From assembly GCA_963674945.2 (NCBI GenBank), contig CAXXWQ010000003.1:2464001-2528000 (forward strand): 64,000 bases of DNA. Reading direction: 5' to 3'. Source of the DNA: an uncultured Desulfosarcina sp. Its GTDB lineage: Bacteria > Desulfobacterota > Desulfobacteria > Desulfobacterales > Desulfosarcinaceae. Under the pieces are notes generated by a model. It saw only the letters and a list, made by a program, of their open reading frames with translations. It did no database searches and was not told where the DNA came from. The position numbers were made by a program, and so were the translations under genes. This document shows positions 56,197 to 64,000 of this stretch, one piece after another. How positions within the stretch are numbered: the first letter of the stretch is position 1; each line of letters begins with the position of its first letter.

Positions 56197-57030
56197 TTGT
56201 CACTTATGTTGTCATGGTGGACCAATATGGAATCCGTCGCTGCGGCTAACGATTGGCTCTTAACGGCTACGATTTTATCTGCACTCCTGACAGGCATCCT
56301 CATCTTTGTGAAGGCCGGAAAACAGAAACATGACGTCGAAAGCCTCTCCAGTGCCCTCCGATCTTCCCGCAGACAGGTTAAGGCATTGGAAAAAGCGGCC
56401 GAGGAGATCCGGAAAGAGTTGCTTGAGATCCAACAGCATCAGGACATCAATCAGATCAAACTGCAAAGCAACCAATCTTCCACGCAGGAGTTGCAAAACG
56501 CCCTTGCCGAAGCGCAACATCGGTTGAAGATCACCGAAGCGGCTTTGAATGAAAGGAAGATCGCAGAAGCCGCCCTGAAGAAAAAGAGAACGGCAACCAC
56601 GACAAAAGGCCGTTCGACCGGGTTATCCCAGGAATTGGAAACCGTTGAGGACCTTATGATTGATGTGCAACCTGCCATCGGCCTCAGCGATGACCAGCAA
56701 GAACAATTGATCGGCCTTCTCGATCCGGGACCAAAAGGAAACGTCGACATCTTTTGTATTGTGGATGATGAAAATTCTGAAACGACGGCCAGACAACTGG
56801 AATCGATTCTCAGCTCCGACGGATGGAAAACCAATGGTGTCGCAAAAAGTGCGTTCACCAAACCGCCCAAGGGGGTGGTTTTGGCGGTAAACAGCAAGGA
56901 TACGGCCCCTTCTTATGCCTCGTTTCTGCAGCGGGTCTTCTCGACGATCGGGATGATTGTTTCCCCGAAGATAGACAAGAAATACCGGGAATGGTCACTG
57001 ACCATTATTGTCGGTGATATTGAGAATTGA
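56197..57030 (+). CDS. Membrane-anchored coiled-coil protein with small C-terminal alpha/beta domain
   Basis: TM WLLTATILSALLTGILIFV, long heptad region, globular C-terminus; start uncertain (56197/56206/56227). Confidence 0.7.
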   Translation: MSLMLSWWTNMESVAAANDWLLTATILSALLTGILIFVKAGKQKHDVESLSSALRSSRRQVKALEKAAEEIRKELLEIQQHQDINQIKLQSNQSSTQELQNALAEAQHRLKITEAALNERKIAEAALKKKRTATTTKGRSTGLSQELETVEDLMIDVQPAIGLSDDQQEQLIGLLDPGPKGNVDIFCIVDDENSETTARQLESILSSDGWKTNGVAKSAFTKPPKGVVLAVNSKDTAPSYASFLQRVFSTIGMIVSPKIDKKYREWSLTIIVGDIEN

Positions 57031-57069
57031 TTGACCCAAAAATGAAACTTCAGCTATGGAAAAACACCC

Positions 57070-57741
57070 ATGACAGCAAATATTGCCTCTCAAGCAAGCG
57101 ATCCCCAGAACAACCCGATGCTTTCCCGATTGACCTTGACAGCCGCCGGTCTAACGATTTTTTTGGCTGTACTCTCTCTGATTTTTAGCAACCGACTGGA
57201 AACGCTGCGCGTTGAATACCAAGATACGATCCGCAAGGGGGTCGCAACAGAGGCAAATGCAGAGCTGAATTCCGTCACGGCAGAGTTAGATGCCATGAAA
57301 CAATCCATGGAAGCCGAAAAAACGACGAACGACAAGCTCAAGAAAAAGATTGCCGTCATCACGAAAGAGTCGGAGAAGATAAAATCGGAATTGGCGCTGG
57401 CACAAAAAACCATTAAAGAGCTCCGCTCGGCCGAAACGTCTGCCGAAACCATGGAATCGTTGCCTTTTTCCGATTCCCCCATATCCGATGGGTTGCCAAT
57501 GGAAACGCCCCCCAACCCGGATACGGAGTCGAAAGATCTTTTACCCGAATCACAAGTGCAACCTTCCGTTTCATCCCATTCTGCAAAAGAGCCGCAAAAC
57601 ACTTCTTTGACCGAAGAATCGGTGGCGCCCGCTGCTTTGCCAGTTGAACCGGCGGCCCCATCCATTTCCGAGTCAATCCGGCCGGAACCTTCCGCGCCGG
57701 AGGAAAATGAGATTGCGTCCGATTCGAACCAAACGCAGTAA
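57070..57741 (+). CDS. Membrane-anchored coiled-coil protein with acidic/Pro/Ser disordered tail
   Basis: TM LTAAGLTIFLAVLSLIF, coiled coil, low-complexity tail. Confidence 0.7.
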   Translation: MTANIASQASDPQNNPMLSRLTLTAAGLTIFLAVLSLIFSNRLETLRVEYQDTIRKGVATEANAELNSVTAELDAMKQSMEAEKTTNDKLKKKIAVITKESEKIKSELALAQKTIKELRSAETSAETMESLPFSDSPISDGLPMETPPNPDTESKDLLPESQVQPSVSSHSAKEPQNTSLTEESVAPAALPVEPAAPSISESIRPEPSAPEENEIASDSNQTQ

Positions 57742-57943
57742 ACGCTAAACCTTCTATATCATTCCACGCTGCACGAAGATACTTGTCCTCGTCACCGTTC
57801 GCGCCGCTTCAAAGGCCGGGCATCATCGTCGAATACAGTAGCTTATCGAATCCGTGCTTCGCCGTTTGAGAGTTCCTCATGATCTTTTCCTGTTTGCCGA
57901 TATTGGTTTATAGTAAACCTTAGCGGAAAGGGAGATCGTTTCG

Positions 57944-59086
57944 ATGAAAGGTGACAATCTGGTATTTCTTGAAAATTTAGAGTGGTTCGACGAAAGCGGT
58001 CAGGAACTGGTACACCGTCTGCCGGAAAAAGGATCCGGTGAGATCAAATGGGGAGCCCAGCTGACACTACGGGAAAGCCAGGCAGGTGTATTCTACTATA
58101 AAGGTAAGGCAGTGGAGGCCTTCGGTCCCGGCCGTCATACGCTTACGACAGGTAACATCCCCTTACTGACAAAGATCGCCAGCCTGCCCTGGGGAATGAG
58201 CAGTCCACTAAGAGCGGAAGTCTATTTCGTCAACATGAAGGTCTTTACCAACCTTAAATGGGGAACAAGGGATCCGGTGGCCTTTAAGGATACGGAATTG
58301 GGACTGATCCGTCTGCGGGCATTCGGTGTATTCAATCTGCGGGTACTTCAACCGATACTGTTCATCAACACCATGGTGGGCACCCAGGGCATGTTTACCA
58401 CCGAAAGCATTGAAGAGTACTTGAATCGCGTCATCGTCTCCCGCTTTAACGATTATATGGGAGAAACCATCGACTCCATCCTTTCCCTGCCCGCCCAATA
58501 CGATGAACTGTCCCAAGGGCTTTCCAAGCGTCTGGAATCGGATTTTAAAAATTTCGGGTTGGGGCTCACCCACCTTTACATGAATGCCATCACACCTCCG
58601 CAGGAGGTTCAGAAGGCCATCGACGATCGAAGTCGAATGGGCGTCTTCGACGATATGAACAAGCTGATGCAGGTGAAGGCGGCCATGGCCATGGAGAAAG
58701 CCGCCGAGAAAGAGGGCGAAGGCGGCATGGGCATGGGAACGAGCCTGGGTTTGATGATGCCGGCCATGTTTGCCAACTATTTCAACGCTTCGAAACAAGG
58801 CAACGGCCATGGGGATTCGATGCCGGCATCTTACGAATCCACCACTTGCCAAGAGTGCCGATGCACCATTCCGGCCAATGCTAGATTTTGTCCCATGTGC
58901 GGTCATCAGCAGATCGTTTTTGACCAGTGCAGTCACTGCGGTAAAAATTTAGTTCCCAATGCACGATTCTGCTCCCGTTGCGGCCACCCGACCGAAGAAA
59001 AACCCGTTCCCATTTTTTGTGCATCCTGCGGGGCCGAAAATGTAGCCGGATCCAAATTTTGCACCAATTGCGGAGAAAAGCATTAA
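57944..59086 (+). CDS. SPFH/band-7 protein (YdjI-like) with C-terminal zinc ribbons
   Basis: GAQLTLRESQ, FGPGRHTLTTGNIPLL, AEVYFVN, KWGT, LRAFG, ITPPQEVQKAID; six CxxC motifs (ARFCPMCG, ARFCSRCG, KFCTNCG). Confidence 0.9.
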   Translation: MKGDNLVFLENLEWFDESGQELVHRLPEKGSGEIKWGAQLTLRESQAGVFYYKGKAVEAFGPGRHTLTTGNIPLLTKIASLPWGMSSPLRAEVYFVNMKVFTNLKWGTRDPVAFKDTELGLIRLRAFGVFNLRVLQPILFINTMVGTQGMFTTESIEEYLNRVIVSRFNDYMGETIDSILSLPAQYDELSQGLSKRLESDFKNFGLGLTHLYMNAITPPQEVQKAIDDRSRMGVFDDMNKLMQVKAAMAMEKAAEKEGEGGMGMGTSLGLMMPAMFANYFNASKQGNGHGDSMPASYESTTCQECRCTIPANARFCPMCGHQQIVFDQCSHCGKNLVPNARFCSRCGHPTEEKPVPIFCASCGAENVAGSKFCTNCGEKH

Positions 59087-60314
59087 TTTTCTCATCGAAC
59101 ATCAATGCCCCCAATGCGGGGCACCGGCGACACTCGGCGAGACCGACCGATTGTTTCGCTGCGAATTTTGCAAGGTTACGTCATGCCTCGTGCCCCAAGG
59201 ATTCTTCCGGTATCTGCTACCTAACCGTGCACCCTACGATAAAGATCTGCTGTACGTTCCCTACTGGCGGTTCAAGGGCATGCTTTTTTCCTGTCTTTCC
59301 ACCGGGATCGAAAACCGATTCATGGATGTCAGCCATCTGGCGGTCCCGTCACCATTCTTTCCGGCCACCGTTGGACTTCGTAGTCAGGCCCTGAAATTGT
59401 CTTTTGTGGATCCAAAGGTGAAAGGTTGGTTTCTTCGCCCTACCCTTTTTTTTCATCAGGCAATGGAGATGTTCACACACCGTTTTAACCGTCATCATTC
59501 CGAAGATATTTTTCACCAGGCCCATATCGGTGAATCCGTAAGTATTTTGTATGCGCCATTTTATCTCGATGACGGTCTCGTCGATGGGGTGCTCAACCAG
59601 CCAATCCCGAAAGAGCCGGATACGATCTTCGATATCAACCAATTCACTGGGGGGCCGGCCGATTGGCGGGTCCGCTTCATTCCCACCTTATGTCCCGACT
59701 GCGGATGGGACATGAAGGGCGGTCACAAGGACGCCCTGGTCCTTTTTTGTAAAAACTGCGATACCCATTGGCAGGCGACCAAAAATGGCTTGGTCCGTGT
59801 CGAGGCAGCGCACATGCCGGGCAACGATGCCCAAGAGACCATCTACCTCCCCTTCTGGCGAGTCCGCGCAACCGTAACGGGGATTGATCTCTCCTCTTAT
59901 GCGGATCTCGTGAAAACCGCCAATCTGGCAAAAGCCGTCCAACCCGGTTGGGAAAAGCGACCCTTTTCCTTTTGGGGTCCTGCATTCAAAGTACGACCCA
60001 AAAGTTTTCTGCGTCTGACCCACCAGATCACCATGGTTCAACCGCGAGAAGAGTTGGTGGCCAGCGGCCCCAGAGGGAACGTCCACCCTGTAAATCTTCC
60101 CGTTTCCGAATCCATTGAGACCATGAAGGTGAACCTGGCCGGTATCATTCGGCAACAAAAGCACTTTGCAAAAATCATCGAAGCGATTCAGGTCACTCCG
60201 AAAAGCTACCTTCTGGTCTATTTCCCCTTTTCCGTACGTCACCACGATCTGGTTCAGCCGACCCTCAACATCGCCGTGAACCGTAATCAACTCGCCCTGG
60301 CCGGTAATCTATAG
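59082..60314 (+). CDS. Zinc-ribbon protein with duplicated (Y/F)xP(Y/F)W modules (YdjG-like); probable ATT start
   Basis: Frame open from 59046; CPQCGA...CEFC and CPDCG...CKNC knuckles; YVPYWR and YLPFWR; the track start 59151 cuts off the first CxxC. Confidence 0.75.
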   Translation: MNFLIEHQCPQCGAPATLGETDRLFRCEFCKVTSCLVPQGFFRYLLPNRAPYDKDLLYVPYWRFKGMLFSCLSTGIENRFMDVSHLAVPSPFFPATVGLRSQALKLSFVDPKVKGWFLRPTLFFHQAMEMFTHRFNRHHSEDIFHQAHIGESVSILYAPFYLDDGLVDGVLNQPIPKEPDTIFDINQFTGGPADWRVRFIPTLCPDCGWDMKGGHKDALVLFCKNCDTHWQATKNGLVRVEAAHMPGNDAQETIYLPFWRVRATVTGIDLSSYADLVKTANLAKAVQPGWEKRPFSFWGPAFKVRPKSFLRLTHQITMVQPREELVASGPRGNVHPVNLPVSESIETMKVNLAGIIRQQKHFAKIIEAIQVTPKSYLLVYFPFSVRHHDLVQPTLNIAVNRNQLALAGNL

Positions 60315-60528
60315 TGTTTCTGTATTCGAATATGCTACGGCCCGGCGTGGTTTTTCCTTGAAAGCACGAAATTTTCGTGGTTGAATTCGGTAAGTGGAAA
60401 CTGCCTGCCGAGCCCCTTGAAAAGTGTTGAATCGGGGCATATCCGTTGTCGCTTCCTTTTGGCGCAATGGACACCGACCCGTGCCGGATGGAACATCTCC
60501 AATTTATCCTGCAACCAAAGGAGCGAAT

Positions 60529-61491
60529 ATGGCCCAACCCCTTTCCAGTCAACTGCTTCGACGGTCCTTCGTTAAGACCGTCCTTCGTCGTATCATTGCA
60601 TTCCTTACGTTGGTGGGGCTCGCATATGGTTTGATCGCCATCATCTACGCCACAAAAACCATCTTCAAGGTCAAAATGAATTACGCCGTGGTGCTGGAAG
60701 GGTTCGGCGGCGTCAGACAAGCGGTGACCGAAGTGGGCTGGCATGCCCGCCTTCCCTATTTCACACGGATCGAACAGGAAGTGCCGTTGATGAATCAGAC
60801 CATGCAACTGGGTGGCACACCTGCCCCCATGCGCATCATCTCAAGGGGAAACGTGGCACTGTGGACATCAGGAGTGCTGACATACCGAATCCGTGACCTT
60901 CACACCTGGGCCATCGAAAATCTGAACCCGCTGGATTTACTGCAAGGCGACTACGACGGAATCGTCAAGGACAACCTGCAGGCCCAGGAAGTAGACCGAT
61001 TGATCAGCGACCGGGAGACTATCAAGGAGGCGATCTTCACCGCCTTAAAGTCAAGACCCATCAACATCGGAGGTCCCACCATAGAAGAAAAATACGGAGT
61101 GGAAGTGGTCAGTTTCGTTCTCAAGGAGACTCGGTTCGGAGATAAACTCGTAGAGGCGTCGGAAGAGAAAAAGCGTCGGGAATTGATTGCCGAAGCCGAA
61201 AACTATGCCGCCGACCAGGAGGCAAGCCGGATACGAAAGCTCTATTCCGCCTATCTCGACGGCATTCAAAATCTGCAAGAGGCCTTGGGACGAAAGGATG
61301 CGAGCACCGATACCGCGCTTCTTCAATTTTTGACACAACAAAAATGGGCTACGGCCTACGAGAAGCAACAATTGGGGCAAAACACAGTGGTCATTCAAAA
61401 TACACAGGGCACCGCACCGCCGATCGTCCTTCCCGCTTTCAGTACCACCGAGAAATTGGAGGGAGAAAAAGATGGCCAGACGGCTGACTAA
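60529..61491 (+). CDS. SPFH/band-7 (stomatin/prohibitin/HflC-like) membrane protein
   Basis: ATG 60529 behind AAGGAG; N-terminal TM, YAVVLEGFG...GWHARLPY, LISDRETIKEAI, KYGVEVVSFVLKE, AEAE coiled coil. Confidence 0.8.
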   Translation: MAQPLSSQLLRRSFVKTVLRRIIAFLTLVGLAYGLIAIIYATKTIFKVKMNYAVVLEGFGGVRQAVTEVGWHARLPYFTRIEQEVPLMNQTMQLGGTPAPMRIISRGNVALWTSGVLTYRIRDLHTWAIENLNPLDLLQGDYDGIVKDNLQAQEVDRLISDRETIKEAIFTALKSRPINIGGPTIEEKYGVEVVSFVLKETRFGDKLVEASEEKKRRELIAEAENYAADQEASRIRKLYSAYLDGIQNLQEALGRKDASTDTALLQFLTQQKWATAYEKQQLGQNTVVIQNTQGTAPPIVLPAFSTTEKLEGEKDGQTAD

Positions 61492-64000
61492 AGAGATCAC
61501 CTACGTCCAATTGCCGGAGGGCCGGATCCGGGAGATCAACGAATTGGTGTCCGCGTGGCCCCAGGAAACCAAAGCCTTCATGCGCGCCAGGCTCAATCAG
61601 TACCGTCCTCCAAGGGGTCTTTTCAACAGCGCTTTGGAAACGATCCTTTCTTTTTTCATGGATGCGCCGGAAAAACATTTCAACGTGTTAAAGGATCCCG
61701 ATATTCTGACGGACTGGCAAAAACGATTTGAAATTTCCGGACATACCAACCCGCAGGAGGCATGGAATAAAATCCTGGAGAAAGAGGTGTCTGCAAAAGA
61801 CTACCGCTATCTGCTCTACTTACTGGACAAGGAACTGCAGGACGTTCACGTTCCCGTCGAACTGAAAGATCTGTTCGAAAAAGTATATCGCGCCCACTTG
61901 CGAAAGGAGTACATCTCCGATTCGAATGTCCCCAAGTCTTCCCTTTTGCTTTTCATCGGACCGTCCGGCAGTGGAAAGACCTCCACCGTCACCCATGCCA
62001 TCGATCGTATCATTTTCGGAAACGAGGTGTTACCGGAAGTCGACCTGCACCAGAAGAAGGAAGCGGCGCTGGCCGGCGAGCATTTCTGGAAGACCATCGA
62101 AGAGATCGACCCGACACTGGCCGTGGAGATTTCCCAAAGAAAAAAACTGAATTTCTACAAGCGCATATCTACGATTCCCGTGCTACGCTTACTTCTGAAG
62201 AAGAGAATCGGAAAGAACCTGTCAAAACTCCAGGAACAGGGCGTCTGGGTGGATTATGCCATGGTCACCCCCAACGATTTTCAGACCGCGCTGGCGGGGG
62301 AACCCGGCAATTACTTCAAAAAGGCCCTGGGTGACCCCAGAAAGATGGCCATCCGGCATGTGGAAGAGGCCCACAGTGCCTTCGGAAGGGCCACAGGGCG
62401 TGATTCCGGGGTAGCACGACAACAAAGAACCCTGGTGGATACATCGAATATCGTCCTGGATGAGATCATCAACGGTAGTCGAGACTGCCTTCTCATCGCC
62501 ACAACGGATCAACCCGAGAGATTTGATTCCGCCATCTACCGCCGTTTCGTGGAAAAGGGACGTATCATCAATATTTCCGATTATTGGACGAATCCTGAGA
62601 ATCTACAGGAAGTGGTTCGACTGGAATTGATGCGAAACGATATTTCGGTCCTTTCCGAGGAAGACCATCCTTCTGCCGCCAGATCAAAATCAATCACGCG
62701 TCAGGACCTTTCCACGACGGTGGACAAGCTCTATTCCATTTTCAAGGAACGAACCTTGAAAGTGATCCCCTCTTATGTACGAAAACTGATCCACTCCATC
62801 ATTCAGATCAAAGGTGATTTTTCCGTCTCCTATCTCAACGATGCCATGCTGGTTCGCAAGGCCTTCGAGTTGGTGGCGCAAAACTCCTATGGCGATCTTT
62901 ATAAGAAGGTCGTCGGCCGCATGGACCGAGATGTCAAGTGGGAGGCCTATGTGGGAAGTATTAAGGATATCTTCTCGGAGATGACCAACAACTGTCTCTT
63001 TTACAATGTCAGCGAAGAAAAGGGCGTTGTGCTCAATGGACCACCGGGAAGCGGCAAGACGTTTTTGGCACGAACCTGGCTCAGTGAAAACACGGATGTC
63101 CACGATATCGCCACCAGTGCAAGCGCCCTGCAGGATCCGTCAAACCCCGTGGATGGTGCCGTGGACAACCTGGAAAAAATTTATGACATCGCCAAGATGA
63201 TTGCACCGACGGTGGTCTTTTTCGACGAGGGGGATGCCCTTGCCCCAAAACGAAGTGGCACCGGTGGAAATCCATCGGACAAACTGACCAACAAATTCTT
63301 AAACCTGATCGATGGCGAGACCCCCCTTCACAAGGTGTTTACCGTTCTCACCACCAATCGACTGGATATCCTCGACCCTGCCCTTATCCGCTCCAAGCGA
63401 CTTAAGGTTCTGGAGATCAAGGGGCTATTACAAAAAGACGACATCCTTCAGATTGTGGACAATGCACTGGAAGGTGTTCCCTTGTCGGCGGATCTTACTA
63501 CGGGTAAGATCGTCGATGCGGCAAAAGGCGTATGCAACACCCCTGCTGATTATGCCGCCTTCGTGGAAAAGGCACGGTCTTTGCGCAATACGGAGTACGA
63601 GGTGATCCTGCGCCTTCGGCAGATTCGCAATGACTCCGAAGAAAGTCGTAAGAATTTCATCAAGTTTAATTTCAAGACCCTGATCGGTATTTTGGATGCC
63701 TTTGATAAGGACAATCAGCTGAAGAAAACCGTCAAGGGGAATGCGGATCGTTTTTTGGAGCAGTACGAAGAGATCCTGAAATTGCTGGAACCGGTCCAAG
63801 ATCCAAATGACTATCCCATGGTATCCAGCCATCTCAAATCGGCCCGTCAGGAAATCTCGGAAAGTCCCACCAAGAAGGGAAAGGTGGTCCTGGACGAATT
63901 TTTAGAGGCGGAGTTGAGCCAGGAGCCCCAGGTTGGCTTTATCATCGGCGTGGGCGCGAACGAGGTAACCGGCGTTCTTTTGCCTATCGCCACGAGCCTT
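61472..64000 (+). CDS. Large tandem-AAA ATPase (Cdc48/p97-like D1+D2), possibly followed by a Lon-type protease domain; 3' end off window
   Basis: Not in the ORF track. Manual translation open for 843 codons from ATG 61472 (MARRLTKEITY...). Walker A GPSGSGKT (61958-61981) and GPPGSGKT (63038-63061); Walker B IRHVEE and VFFDE; SRH ATTDQPERFDSAIYRRF and TTNRLDILDPALIRSKR. Confidence 0.88.
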   Translation, partial: MARRLTKEITYVQLPEGRIREINELVSAWPQETKAFMRARLNQYRPPRGLFNSALETILSFFMDAPEKHFNVLKDPDILTDWQKRFEISGHTNPQEAWNKILEKEVSAKDYRYLLYLLDKELQDVHVPVELKDLFEKVYRAHLRKEYISDSNVPKSSLLLFIGPSGSGKTSTVTHAIDRIIFGNEVLPEVDLHQKKEAALAGEHFWKTIEEIDPTLAVEISQRKKLNFYKRISTIPVLRLLLKKRIGKNLSKLQEQGVWVDYAMVTPNDFQTALAGEPGNYFKKALGDPRKMAIRHVEEAHSAFGRATGRDSGVARQQRTLVDTSNIVLDEIINGSRDCLLIATTDQPERFDSAIYRRFVEKGRIINISDYWTNPENLQEVVRLELMRNDISVLSEEDHPSAARSKSITRQDLSTTVDKLYSIFKERTLKVIPSYVRKLIHSIIQIKGDFSVSYLNDAMLVRKAFELVAQNSYGDLYKKVVGRMDRDVKWEAYVGSIKDIFSEMTNNCLFYNVSEEKGVVLNGPPGSGKTFLARTWLSENTDVHDIATSASALQDPSNPVDGAVDNLEKIYDIAKMIAPTVVFFDEGDALAPKRSGTGGNPSDKLTNKFLNLIDGETPLHKVFTVLTTNRLDILDPALIRSKRLKVLEIKGLLQKDDILQIVDNALEGVPLSADLTTGKIVDAAKGVCNTPADYAAFVEKARSLRNTEYEVILRLRQIRNDSEESRKNFIKFNFKTLIGILDAFDKDNQLKKTVKGNADRFLEQYEEILKLLEPVQDPNDYPMVSSHLKSARQEISESPTKKGKVVLDEFLEAELSQEPQVGFIIGVGANEVTGVLLPIATSL

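Follow-up and report, generated by a model that had tools for sequence, protein, structure and literature searches.

Do four co-oriented genes for two SPFH proteins, a zinc-ribbon protein and a tandem-AAA enzyme encode one membrane proteostasis system, or do they belong to separate systems? This question is raised by the last part of a 64,000 nt stretch of DNA (the window) from an uncultured Desulfosarcina sp. (contig CAXXWQ010000003.1, positions 2,464,001 to 2,528,000), whose genome comprises 7.08 Mb and whose proteins in the window are nearest to those of Desulfosarcina. An earlier note on the window had described four plus-strand genes in two overlapping pairs separated by 214 bp; the coordinates and the gap were confirmed, and all four open reading frames (ORFs) are genuine genes. 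They form two modules, namely a core of an SPFH gene and an AAA/Lon gene, and a separate, commoner zinc-ribbon pair upstream. The core consists of the gene for a membrane-anchored SPFH protein (60529..61491, plus strand; 320 amino acids (aa); Pfam PF01145, E 2e-15) and the gene for a tandem-AAA/Lon fusion of 1139 aa, referred to as the enzyme (61472..64000 in the window, plus strand, ending at position 64891 beyond it). The two genes overlap by 20 bp, the enzyme ORF starting at 61472 and the SPFH gene ending at 61491. The core pair is likely an undescribed machine that degrades proteins at the membrane, and on balance we favor the view that the SPFH protein and the enzyme constitute a membrane-docked ATP-dependent protease that acts together with an SPFH cage.

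Linkage and distribution of the core pair

Among 151 genomes of the order, the SPFH and enzyme genes co-occur in the identical 34 genomes. They are adjacent in 32 of these, and the remaining two are broken at contig ends. Altogether, 74 genome loci were collected (from the best 80 of 81 matches), of which 60 were informative in that they included both the N-terminus of the enzyme and upstream DNA, while 14 were dropped. In all 60 informative loci, an SPFH ortholog lies directly upstream of the enzyme gene, so that the adjacency of SPFH and ATPase genes seen in the window holds across genomes. At the level of the phylum, the enzyme was found in 6 of 301 genomes, and all five besides the genome under study carry the SPFH gene upstream; the same is true for both metagenome loci with upstream DNA. 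The genes flanking the core vary by lineage and are mostly of the housekeeping type, with a synteny that is stable within genera. The adjacency of the two genes is thus retained despite changing flanks, which supports a strictly linked SPFH-enzyme unit.

Cultured carriers include Desulfosarcina alkanivorans, D. widdelii, Desulfofustis glycolicus, and Desulfopila aestuarii. Full-length relatives of the enzyme were found at 32–39% identity, two of them named from Woesearchaeota and Nanoarchaeota. In a metagenome scan based on an alignment of the distant members, matches to the Walker A pattern predominated; three of the 48 loci belonged to the family, and an archaeal origin was demonstrated for none. 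In addition, Atlas clusters of archaeal AAA + Lon_C proteins of 909–919 aa (Bathyarchaeota/Thermoproteota) matched the enzyme with a score of 0.97 and possibly represent a shorter sister family. Four loci from draft assemblies (L006, L010, L028, and L040) have either a split protease match or an absent or incomplete SPFH gene, owing to frameshifts or gaps; assembly error and gene decay both fit these breaks.

The patchy distribution (34 of 151 and 6 of 301 genomes), together with a weak match of the second AAA domain to the PADLOC IetA models (E 3e-14), would be compatible with an anti-phage or conflict system of the Iet type, with activation of the protease by the ATPase upon infection. However, the IetA match covers the generic AAA domain only and is weaker than the match to Cdc48, the enzyme family has no match in viral contigs or plasmids, the synteny is stable within genera, and 13 of 14 recurrent neighbors are housekeeping-type genes without a PADLOC match. 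We consider a role in defense most improbable.

Architecture of the enzyme

The enzyme consists of a helical N-terminal domain (residues 1–150), the AAA domains D1 (about 155–480) and D2 (about 515–700), a helical linker, a Lon peptidase domain (809–998), and C-terminal helices. Its AlphaFold (AF2) model, computed from an alignment of 80 rows that includes archaeal relatives and also underlies the conservation counts given below, reached a predicted local distance difference test score (pLDDT) of 82.6 and a predicted template modeling score (pTM) of 0.63. The Lon_C match at residues 809–998 lies past the end of the window and is above the Pfam cut-off; the "Lon-like" guess made from the truncated ORF was therefore correct. 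The catalytic residues Ser927 and Lys977 as well as the motif GPSAG are invariant (80/80), and the dyad aligns with that of the LonA proteins of the same genome (HHalign, 98%). The nearest solved sequences of this domain are Bacillus subtilis Lon 2 and archaeal LonB. The catalytic Ser is preceded by a Pro and not by the Asp of LonB. Judged from the sequence, the protease dyad is intact.

For the motor, Cdc48/p97 is the top match both by sequence and by fold, and no M41 peptidase is encoded at the locus, in line with the proposal of a Cdc48-like, non-FtsH double-ring motor in the earlier note. The profile of D1 favors D1 of Cdc48 in 10 of 11 Cdc48-like proteins, although with weak similarity (4–19 bits), and the profile of D2 favors D2 in 8 of 11. 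These 11 proteins were selected from 150 matches; CDC48 was their best NCBIfam model, above the cut-off in 6 of the 11. The enzyme as a whole is far below the cut-offs of the CDC48, FtsH, and Lon models, for example 86 bits versus a cut-off of 803 for TIGR01243. In D2, Walker A, the Walker B Glu586, the sensor-1 Asn629, and Arg640/Arg643 are invariant in all 80 rows, and D1 has kept Walker A and Glu299 as well as an arginine that is almost invariant.

Probable topology of the SPFH protein and proposed docking of the enzyme

The SPFH protein of the core comprises a basic N-terminal tail (residues 1–21), a transmembrane (TM) helix (22–40), the SPFH domains, a coiled coil, and a conserved C-terminal strand. 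The TM helix is the only hydrophobic helix of the protein (hydropathy 2.4), and it is a single continuous helix that lacks a hairpin proline. In 58 SPFH orthologs, the 15 residues before the helix contain on average 4.9 Lys or Arg residues, in comparison to 3.0 after it, and most of the orthologs have more basic residues before the helix than after. Together with the positive-inside rule, this charge bias favors a periplasmic, HflK/C-like location of the SPFH domain. The alternative is an SPFH cage located in the cytoplasm, hence on the enzyme's side of the membrane, where it would bind, cap, or enclose the enzyme directly. Stomatin, which forms a cytoplasmic cage, is the nearest solved sequence (a weak match, E 0.003), the enzyme has no TM helix of its own, and three basic residues follow the SPFH helix as well. 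Against such a same-side cage stand the prevalence of basic residues before the helix and its continuous nature, and we regard it as improbable. A periplasmic SPFH domain has parallels: in HflK/C, erlins, and prohibitins, the helix is N-terminal and the cage is placed opposite the AAA motor, the HflK/C cage being periplasmic and the FtsH motor cytosolic (10.1101/2025.04.21.649849, in part; here and below, "in part" marks a source of which a part was available). A complex prediction with residues 1–680 of the enzyme and 1–305 of the SPFH protein had a score of 0.02 (mark 0.32), which counts neither for nor against an interaction.

How could an enzyme lacking a TM helix (maximum hydropathy 1.66, within the Lon domain) work at the membrane? 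Between Walker A and Walker B of D1 there is an insertion of 75 residues, of which residues 221–249 (62132..62218, plus strand) are the most basic stretch of the whole enzyme, with a mean net charge of +10.7 and 37% hydrophobic residues (70 rows). The AF2 model contains helices at 214–233 and 236–253, that is, a basic amphipathic helix-kink-helix. In a scan of the hydrophobic moment with windows of 18 residues, the insertion was not among the top ten; it stands out by its charge instead. The membrane-insertion sequence or anchor of LonB is also situated between Walker A and B (PMC9569914, in part), and this coincidence of positions supports membrane docking of the enzyme. Residues 221–249 are thus a candidate membrane-docking element.

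Taken together, the following mechanism can be proposed. The SPFH protein would assemble on the inner membrane into a ring-shaped cage that faces the periplasm, and the enzyme, probably a hexamer, would dock on the cytoplasmic face via the basic D1 insertion and the N-terminal tail of the SPFH protein. Membrane or membrane-associated proteins would then be fed through the two Cdc48-type rings into the enzyme's own Lon chamber. The oligomeric states (hexamer, cage) are presumed from the respective families, and the topology, the docking sites, and the class of membrane substrates are likewise inferred. As to the idea that an SPFH ring recruits the enzyme, put forward in the earlier note, the charge bias suggests that the ring is across the membrane from the enzyme, and recruitment would make use of the short N-terminal tail and a lipid patch, not of an enclosure. 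A further-reaching version is that of a prokaryotic two-gene counterpart of endoplasmic-reticulum-associated degradation (ERAD): at the outer face of the cytoplasmic membrane, an SPFH cage would corral membrane proteins for the Cdc48-type double motor, which, devoid of a TM helix and docked by its basic hairpin, would extract them into its own Lon chamber, and this self-compartmentalizing protease architecture would be common to sulfate reducers and DPANN archaea. As a whole, this version is possible but doubtful.

Several observations weigh against a membrane-docked, substrate-pulling protease. The topology of the SPFH protein (N-in/C-out), which we deem likely, is deduced from a charge bias that is moderate. 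The ligand of the basic insertion could be nucleic acid and not lipid, and most of the insertion is missing in a distant member, P0254. The spacing of the catalytic Ser and Lys is 49 residues, owing to a 7-residue insertion, in comparison to 42 in known Lons (PMC9569914, in part). The genome already contains four FtsH genes, along with four strong matches to Lon_C and two pairs of adjacent SPFH genes. Within the motor, Walker B of D1 is divergent (HxEE) and D1 lacks the sensor-1 Asn. The D1 pore loop is non-aromatic (TALAG, TALSG, or TSLAG) in 70 of the 80 rows, and only eight, all from distant relatives, retain an aromatic residue (W or Y). D2 has no aromatic pore-loop residue (553–563 in the common variants), so that neither ring is aromatic at the pore loops in the members from Desulfobacterota. 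Cdc48 pulls its substrates via aromatic pore loops (PMC13328587), and their loss in the Desulfobacterota lineage therefore weighs against a strong pulling or unfoldase activity.

These features of the motor would be explained by a weak or non-pulling protease, in which ATP controls assembly or gating and which cuts unfolded proteins or its SPFH partner. There are precedents for both activities: LonC degrades only unfolded substrates and does so without ATP hydrolysis (PMC3391209, in part), and the operon-partner protease long NfeD PH1510 clips the stomatin PH1511 (PMC13086221, in part). However, the D2 motifs are invariant, unlike those of LonC, the distant members have kept the aromatic D1 loop, and only about 20 residues of the SPFH protein would be within reach of the enzyme if the SPFH domain is periplasmic. 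A non-pulling protease thus appears rather unlikely to us.

The presence of further FtsH, Lon, and SPFH genes in the genome indicates that the core is an accessory addition and not a replacement, and it may be specialized. Both pspA and ftsH, which had been reported as not visible in the window, are indeed not in the region; elsewhere in the genome there are two PspA and four FtsH matches. The adjacent Band_7 pairs are located at C4:852933-857140 and C4:383797-385352. One of them directly precedes an FtsH gene, and in the other the second gene was matched in two pieces.

The upstream zinc-ribbon pair

The first gene of the upstream module (57944..59086, plus strand) encodes a soluble, YdjI/SamI-like protein of 380 aa without a hydrophobic helix, composed of an SPFH domain (PF13421, Band_7_1; E 1e-64) and three C-terminal zinc ribbons (PF12773/PF13240). 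The second gene (59082..60314, plus strand) encodes a soluble protein of 410 aa that arose by internal duplication (HHalign of the two halves, 92.6%), each of the two repeats consisting of a CxxC..CxxC zinc ribbon and an alpha/beta domain. It has no TM helix and matches no Pfam family above the cut-off. Its model has a pLDDT of 87.6, and Foldseek gave no match at E ≤ 0.001 (best Z 4.8), which is no proof of a new fold.

The earlier note had assigned the zinc-ribbon proteins to the same system as adaptors or sensors. Of 51 loci with 3 kb or more of upstream sequence, a set biased to close relatives, 21 indeed show the order of all four genes, the zinc-ribbon gene being at most 700 bp from the core, and in two more loci it is 2.3–3.1 kb away. 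Furthermore, 31 of the 34 protease-bearing genomes contain the 410 aa gene, in comparison to 62 of the 117 others, kin in these counts not being independent. However, no zinc-ribbon gene was seen nearby in the remaining 28 of the 51 loci, and of the 31 genomes with both in an evenly drawn sample of the order, only two have the pair next to the core. It is also far more widespread: relatives of the 410 aa gene were found in 93 of 151 genomes of the order and in 85 of 301 genomes of the phylum, in contrast to 34 and 6 for the enzyme. In two genomes, the complete G018 and G419, the pair and the core are 0.5 Mb and 0.1 Mb apart, respectively, and an unrelated amidohydrolase gene flanks the core about as often as the zinc-ribbon pair does (23 loci). 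In addition, the gap between the pairs is variable and contains a promoter-like element. A single four-gene system is therefore very unlikely, and the assignment as adaptors or sensors was not borne out. Instead, the 410 aa gene and the SPFH-zinc-ribbon gene are an uncharacterized, widespread Desulfobacterota module in their own right, being neighbors in 19 of 19 phylum loci (the 19 best of 84 other genomes). YdjI/SamI of B. subtilis, which is soluble and combines SPFH with a zinc finger at its C-terminus, has YdjG/H as its anchor and recruits PspA (PMC8581546 and PMC13713150, both in part). As a YdjI-like module of its own, the zinc-ribbon pair is found near the core in Desulfosarcina and some relatives. 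One Desulfobacteraceae locus (L012:4558-5787) has kept the 410 aa gene and the core pair and has no upstream match to the SPFH-zinc-ribbon gene.

The promoter-like element 5' of the core pair (60358..60386, plus strand) matches the consensus with a −35-like hexamer, a spacer of 17 bp, and an extended −10-like hexamer. Among 58 upstream regions, 16 contain the strict pattern; these are all Desulfosarcina-like and include three loci that lack the zinc-ribbon pair (L013, L015, and L017). A looser pattern matched 2 of 228 coding control windows. A scan of 57600-61600 revealed one promoter-like site (3.0 expected) and nine terminator-like sites (5.8 ± 2.5 expected); a hairpin at 60334-60351 was not above chance. 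Sigma-54 and CIRCE consensus motifs were found in none of the 58 upstream regions. On the basis of the match at 60358..60386, the core pair likely has its own promoter. Such a promoter would fit two separate operons, suggested before as a possibility because of the 214 bp gap.

The gene for the 410 aa protein opens with ATT at 59082-59084, overlapping the TAA stop codon of the upstream gene. In 25 loci with both genes, the start codons were ATT in 15 cases, ATA in one, ATC in one, and ATG, GTG, or TTG in seven; one was unclear. In the ATA and ATC loci, there is a gap to the upstream gene and an own Shine-Dalgarno-like sequence. No canonical in-frame start is present near the ORF in the window or in L002, L011, and L049. 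A conserved non-AUG start is also found in infC; by analogy, that of the 410 aa gene may serve low expression or tie it to initiation fidelity.

Further upstream, at 56197-57741, two genes on the same strand encode N-terminally anchored coiled-coil proteins without a confident Pfam match. They are situated downstream of a divergent TerB + DnaJ (DjlA-like) gene, and about 13 Desulfosarcina loci have kept them 5' of the SPFH-zinc-ribbon gene. The two proteins could be membrane anchors for the soluble SPFH module.

Comparison with known systems

With FtsH-HflK/HflC and m-AAA-prohibitins, the core shares an SPFH protein with a single N-terminal TM helix and a classical-clade AAA motor fused to a peptidase. 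It differs from FtsH-HflK/C in that there is a single SPFH gene and not a pair, the AAA domain is doubled, the peptidase is of the Lon Ser-Lys type and not an M41 zinc peptidase, and the enzyme has no TM helices. None of the NCBIfam HflK/HflC models matches the 320 aa protein. The tandem classical AAA domains in D1/D2 register and the soluble motor are shared with Cdc48/p97/VAT, Cdc48-20S, and erlin/p97 ERAD, and in the latter an SPFH cage is linked to the degradation of membrane proteins as well (10.1101/2025.04.21.649849, in part). In contrast to Cdc48, the N-terminal domain is helical in the model (1–150) and not a beta-barrel, D1 has the 75-residue insertion, D2 lacks an aromatic pore loop, and the peptidase is fused in cis. 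The C-terminal S16 domain with the GPSAG serine and a downstream lysine is that of the Lon proteases (LonA, LonB, LonBA, and LonC), with Pro before Ser as in LonA and, like LonB, an insertion that separates Walker A from Walker B. However, the motor is a tandem of classical AAA domains, with Cdc48, PAN, and FtsH as the best matches, and not a single HCLR-clade module, the lon models remain far below their cut-offs, the insertion is basic and amphipathic in contrast to the TM hairpin of LonB, the Ser-Lys spacing is 49, and an SPFH gene belongs to the same unit.

The stomatin/long NfeD pair PH1511/PH1510 likewise combines an SPFH gene and a serine protease gene in an operon, but the core has no NfeD domain, includes an ATP motor, and has a Lon peptidase and not a ClpP-like one. 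Like YdjI/SamI of the B. subtilis operon pspA-ydjGHI, the upstream 380 aa protein is soluble and has zinc fingers C-terminal to an SPFH domain (PMC8581546, in part). In contrast to that operon, no pspA or TM YdjG/YdjH-type gene is adjacent, and the gene beside it encodes a soluble zinc-ribbon protein with an internal duplication. The core differs from IetAS in scoring 39 bits with the IteA model versus a cut-off of 510, in having a fused S16 instead of a separate S8 peptidase, and in having an SPFH protein as the partner.

In its proposed mode of action the core is like FtsH-HflK/C, yet it is not a member of the FtsH, Cdc48, or Lon subfamilies. Neither the fusion nor the pair was found to be described in the literature searched, which mostly excluded subscription papers and supplements, whose comparative-genomics tables could list the architecture; the available parts of PMC10936438, PMC5070193, and PMC7159879 contain no description of either.

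Implications

The analysis of the window has largely rejected the four-gene reading, and it adds a likely own promoter of the core pair, a likely location of cage and motor on opposite sides of the membrane, and a lineage-specific loss of aromatic pore loops. To our knowledge, ATP-dependent proteases have few architectures, and Lon peptidases have been described with a single HCLR-clade motor. If the proposed reading is true, the combination of a Lon domain and a tandem Cdc48-type motor with an SPFH gene would add a further protease architecture. With only two genes, the system would also offer a compact setting in which to study the role of an SPFH cage in the work of a protease, and the way in which membrane substrates are engaged by a soluble Cdc48-type motor when there is no ubiquitin. 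Finally, the pairing of SPFH proteins with AAA proteases would have arisen more than once.

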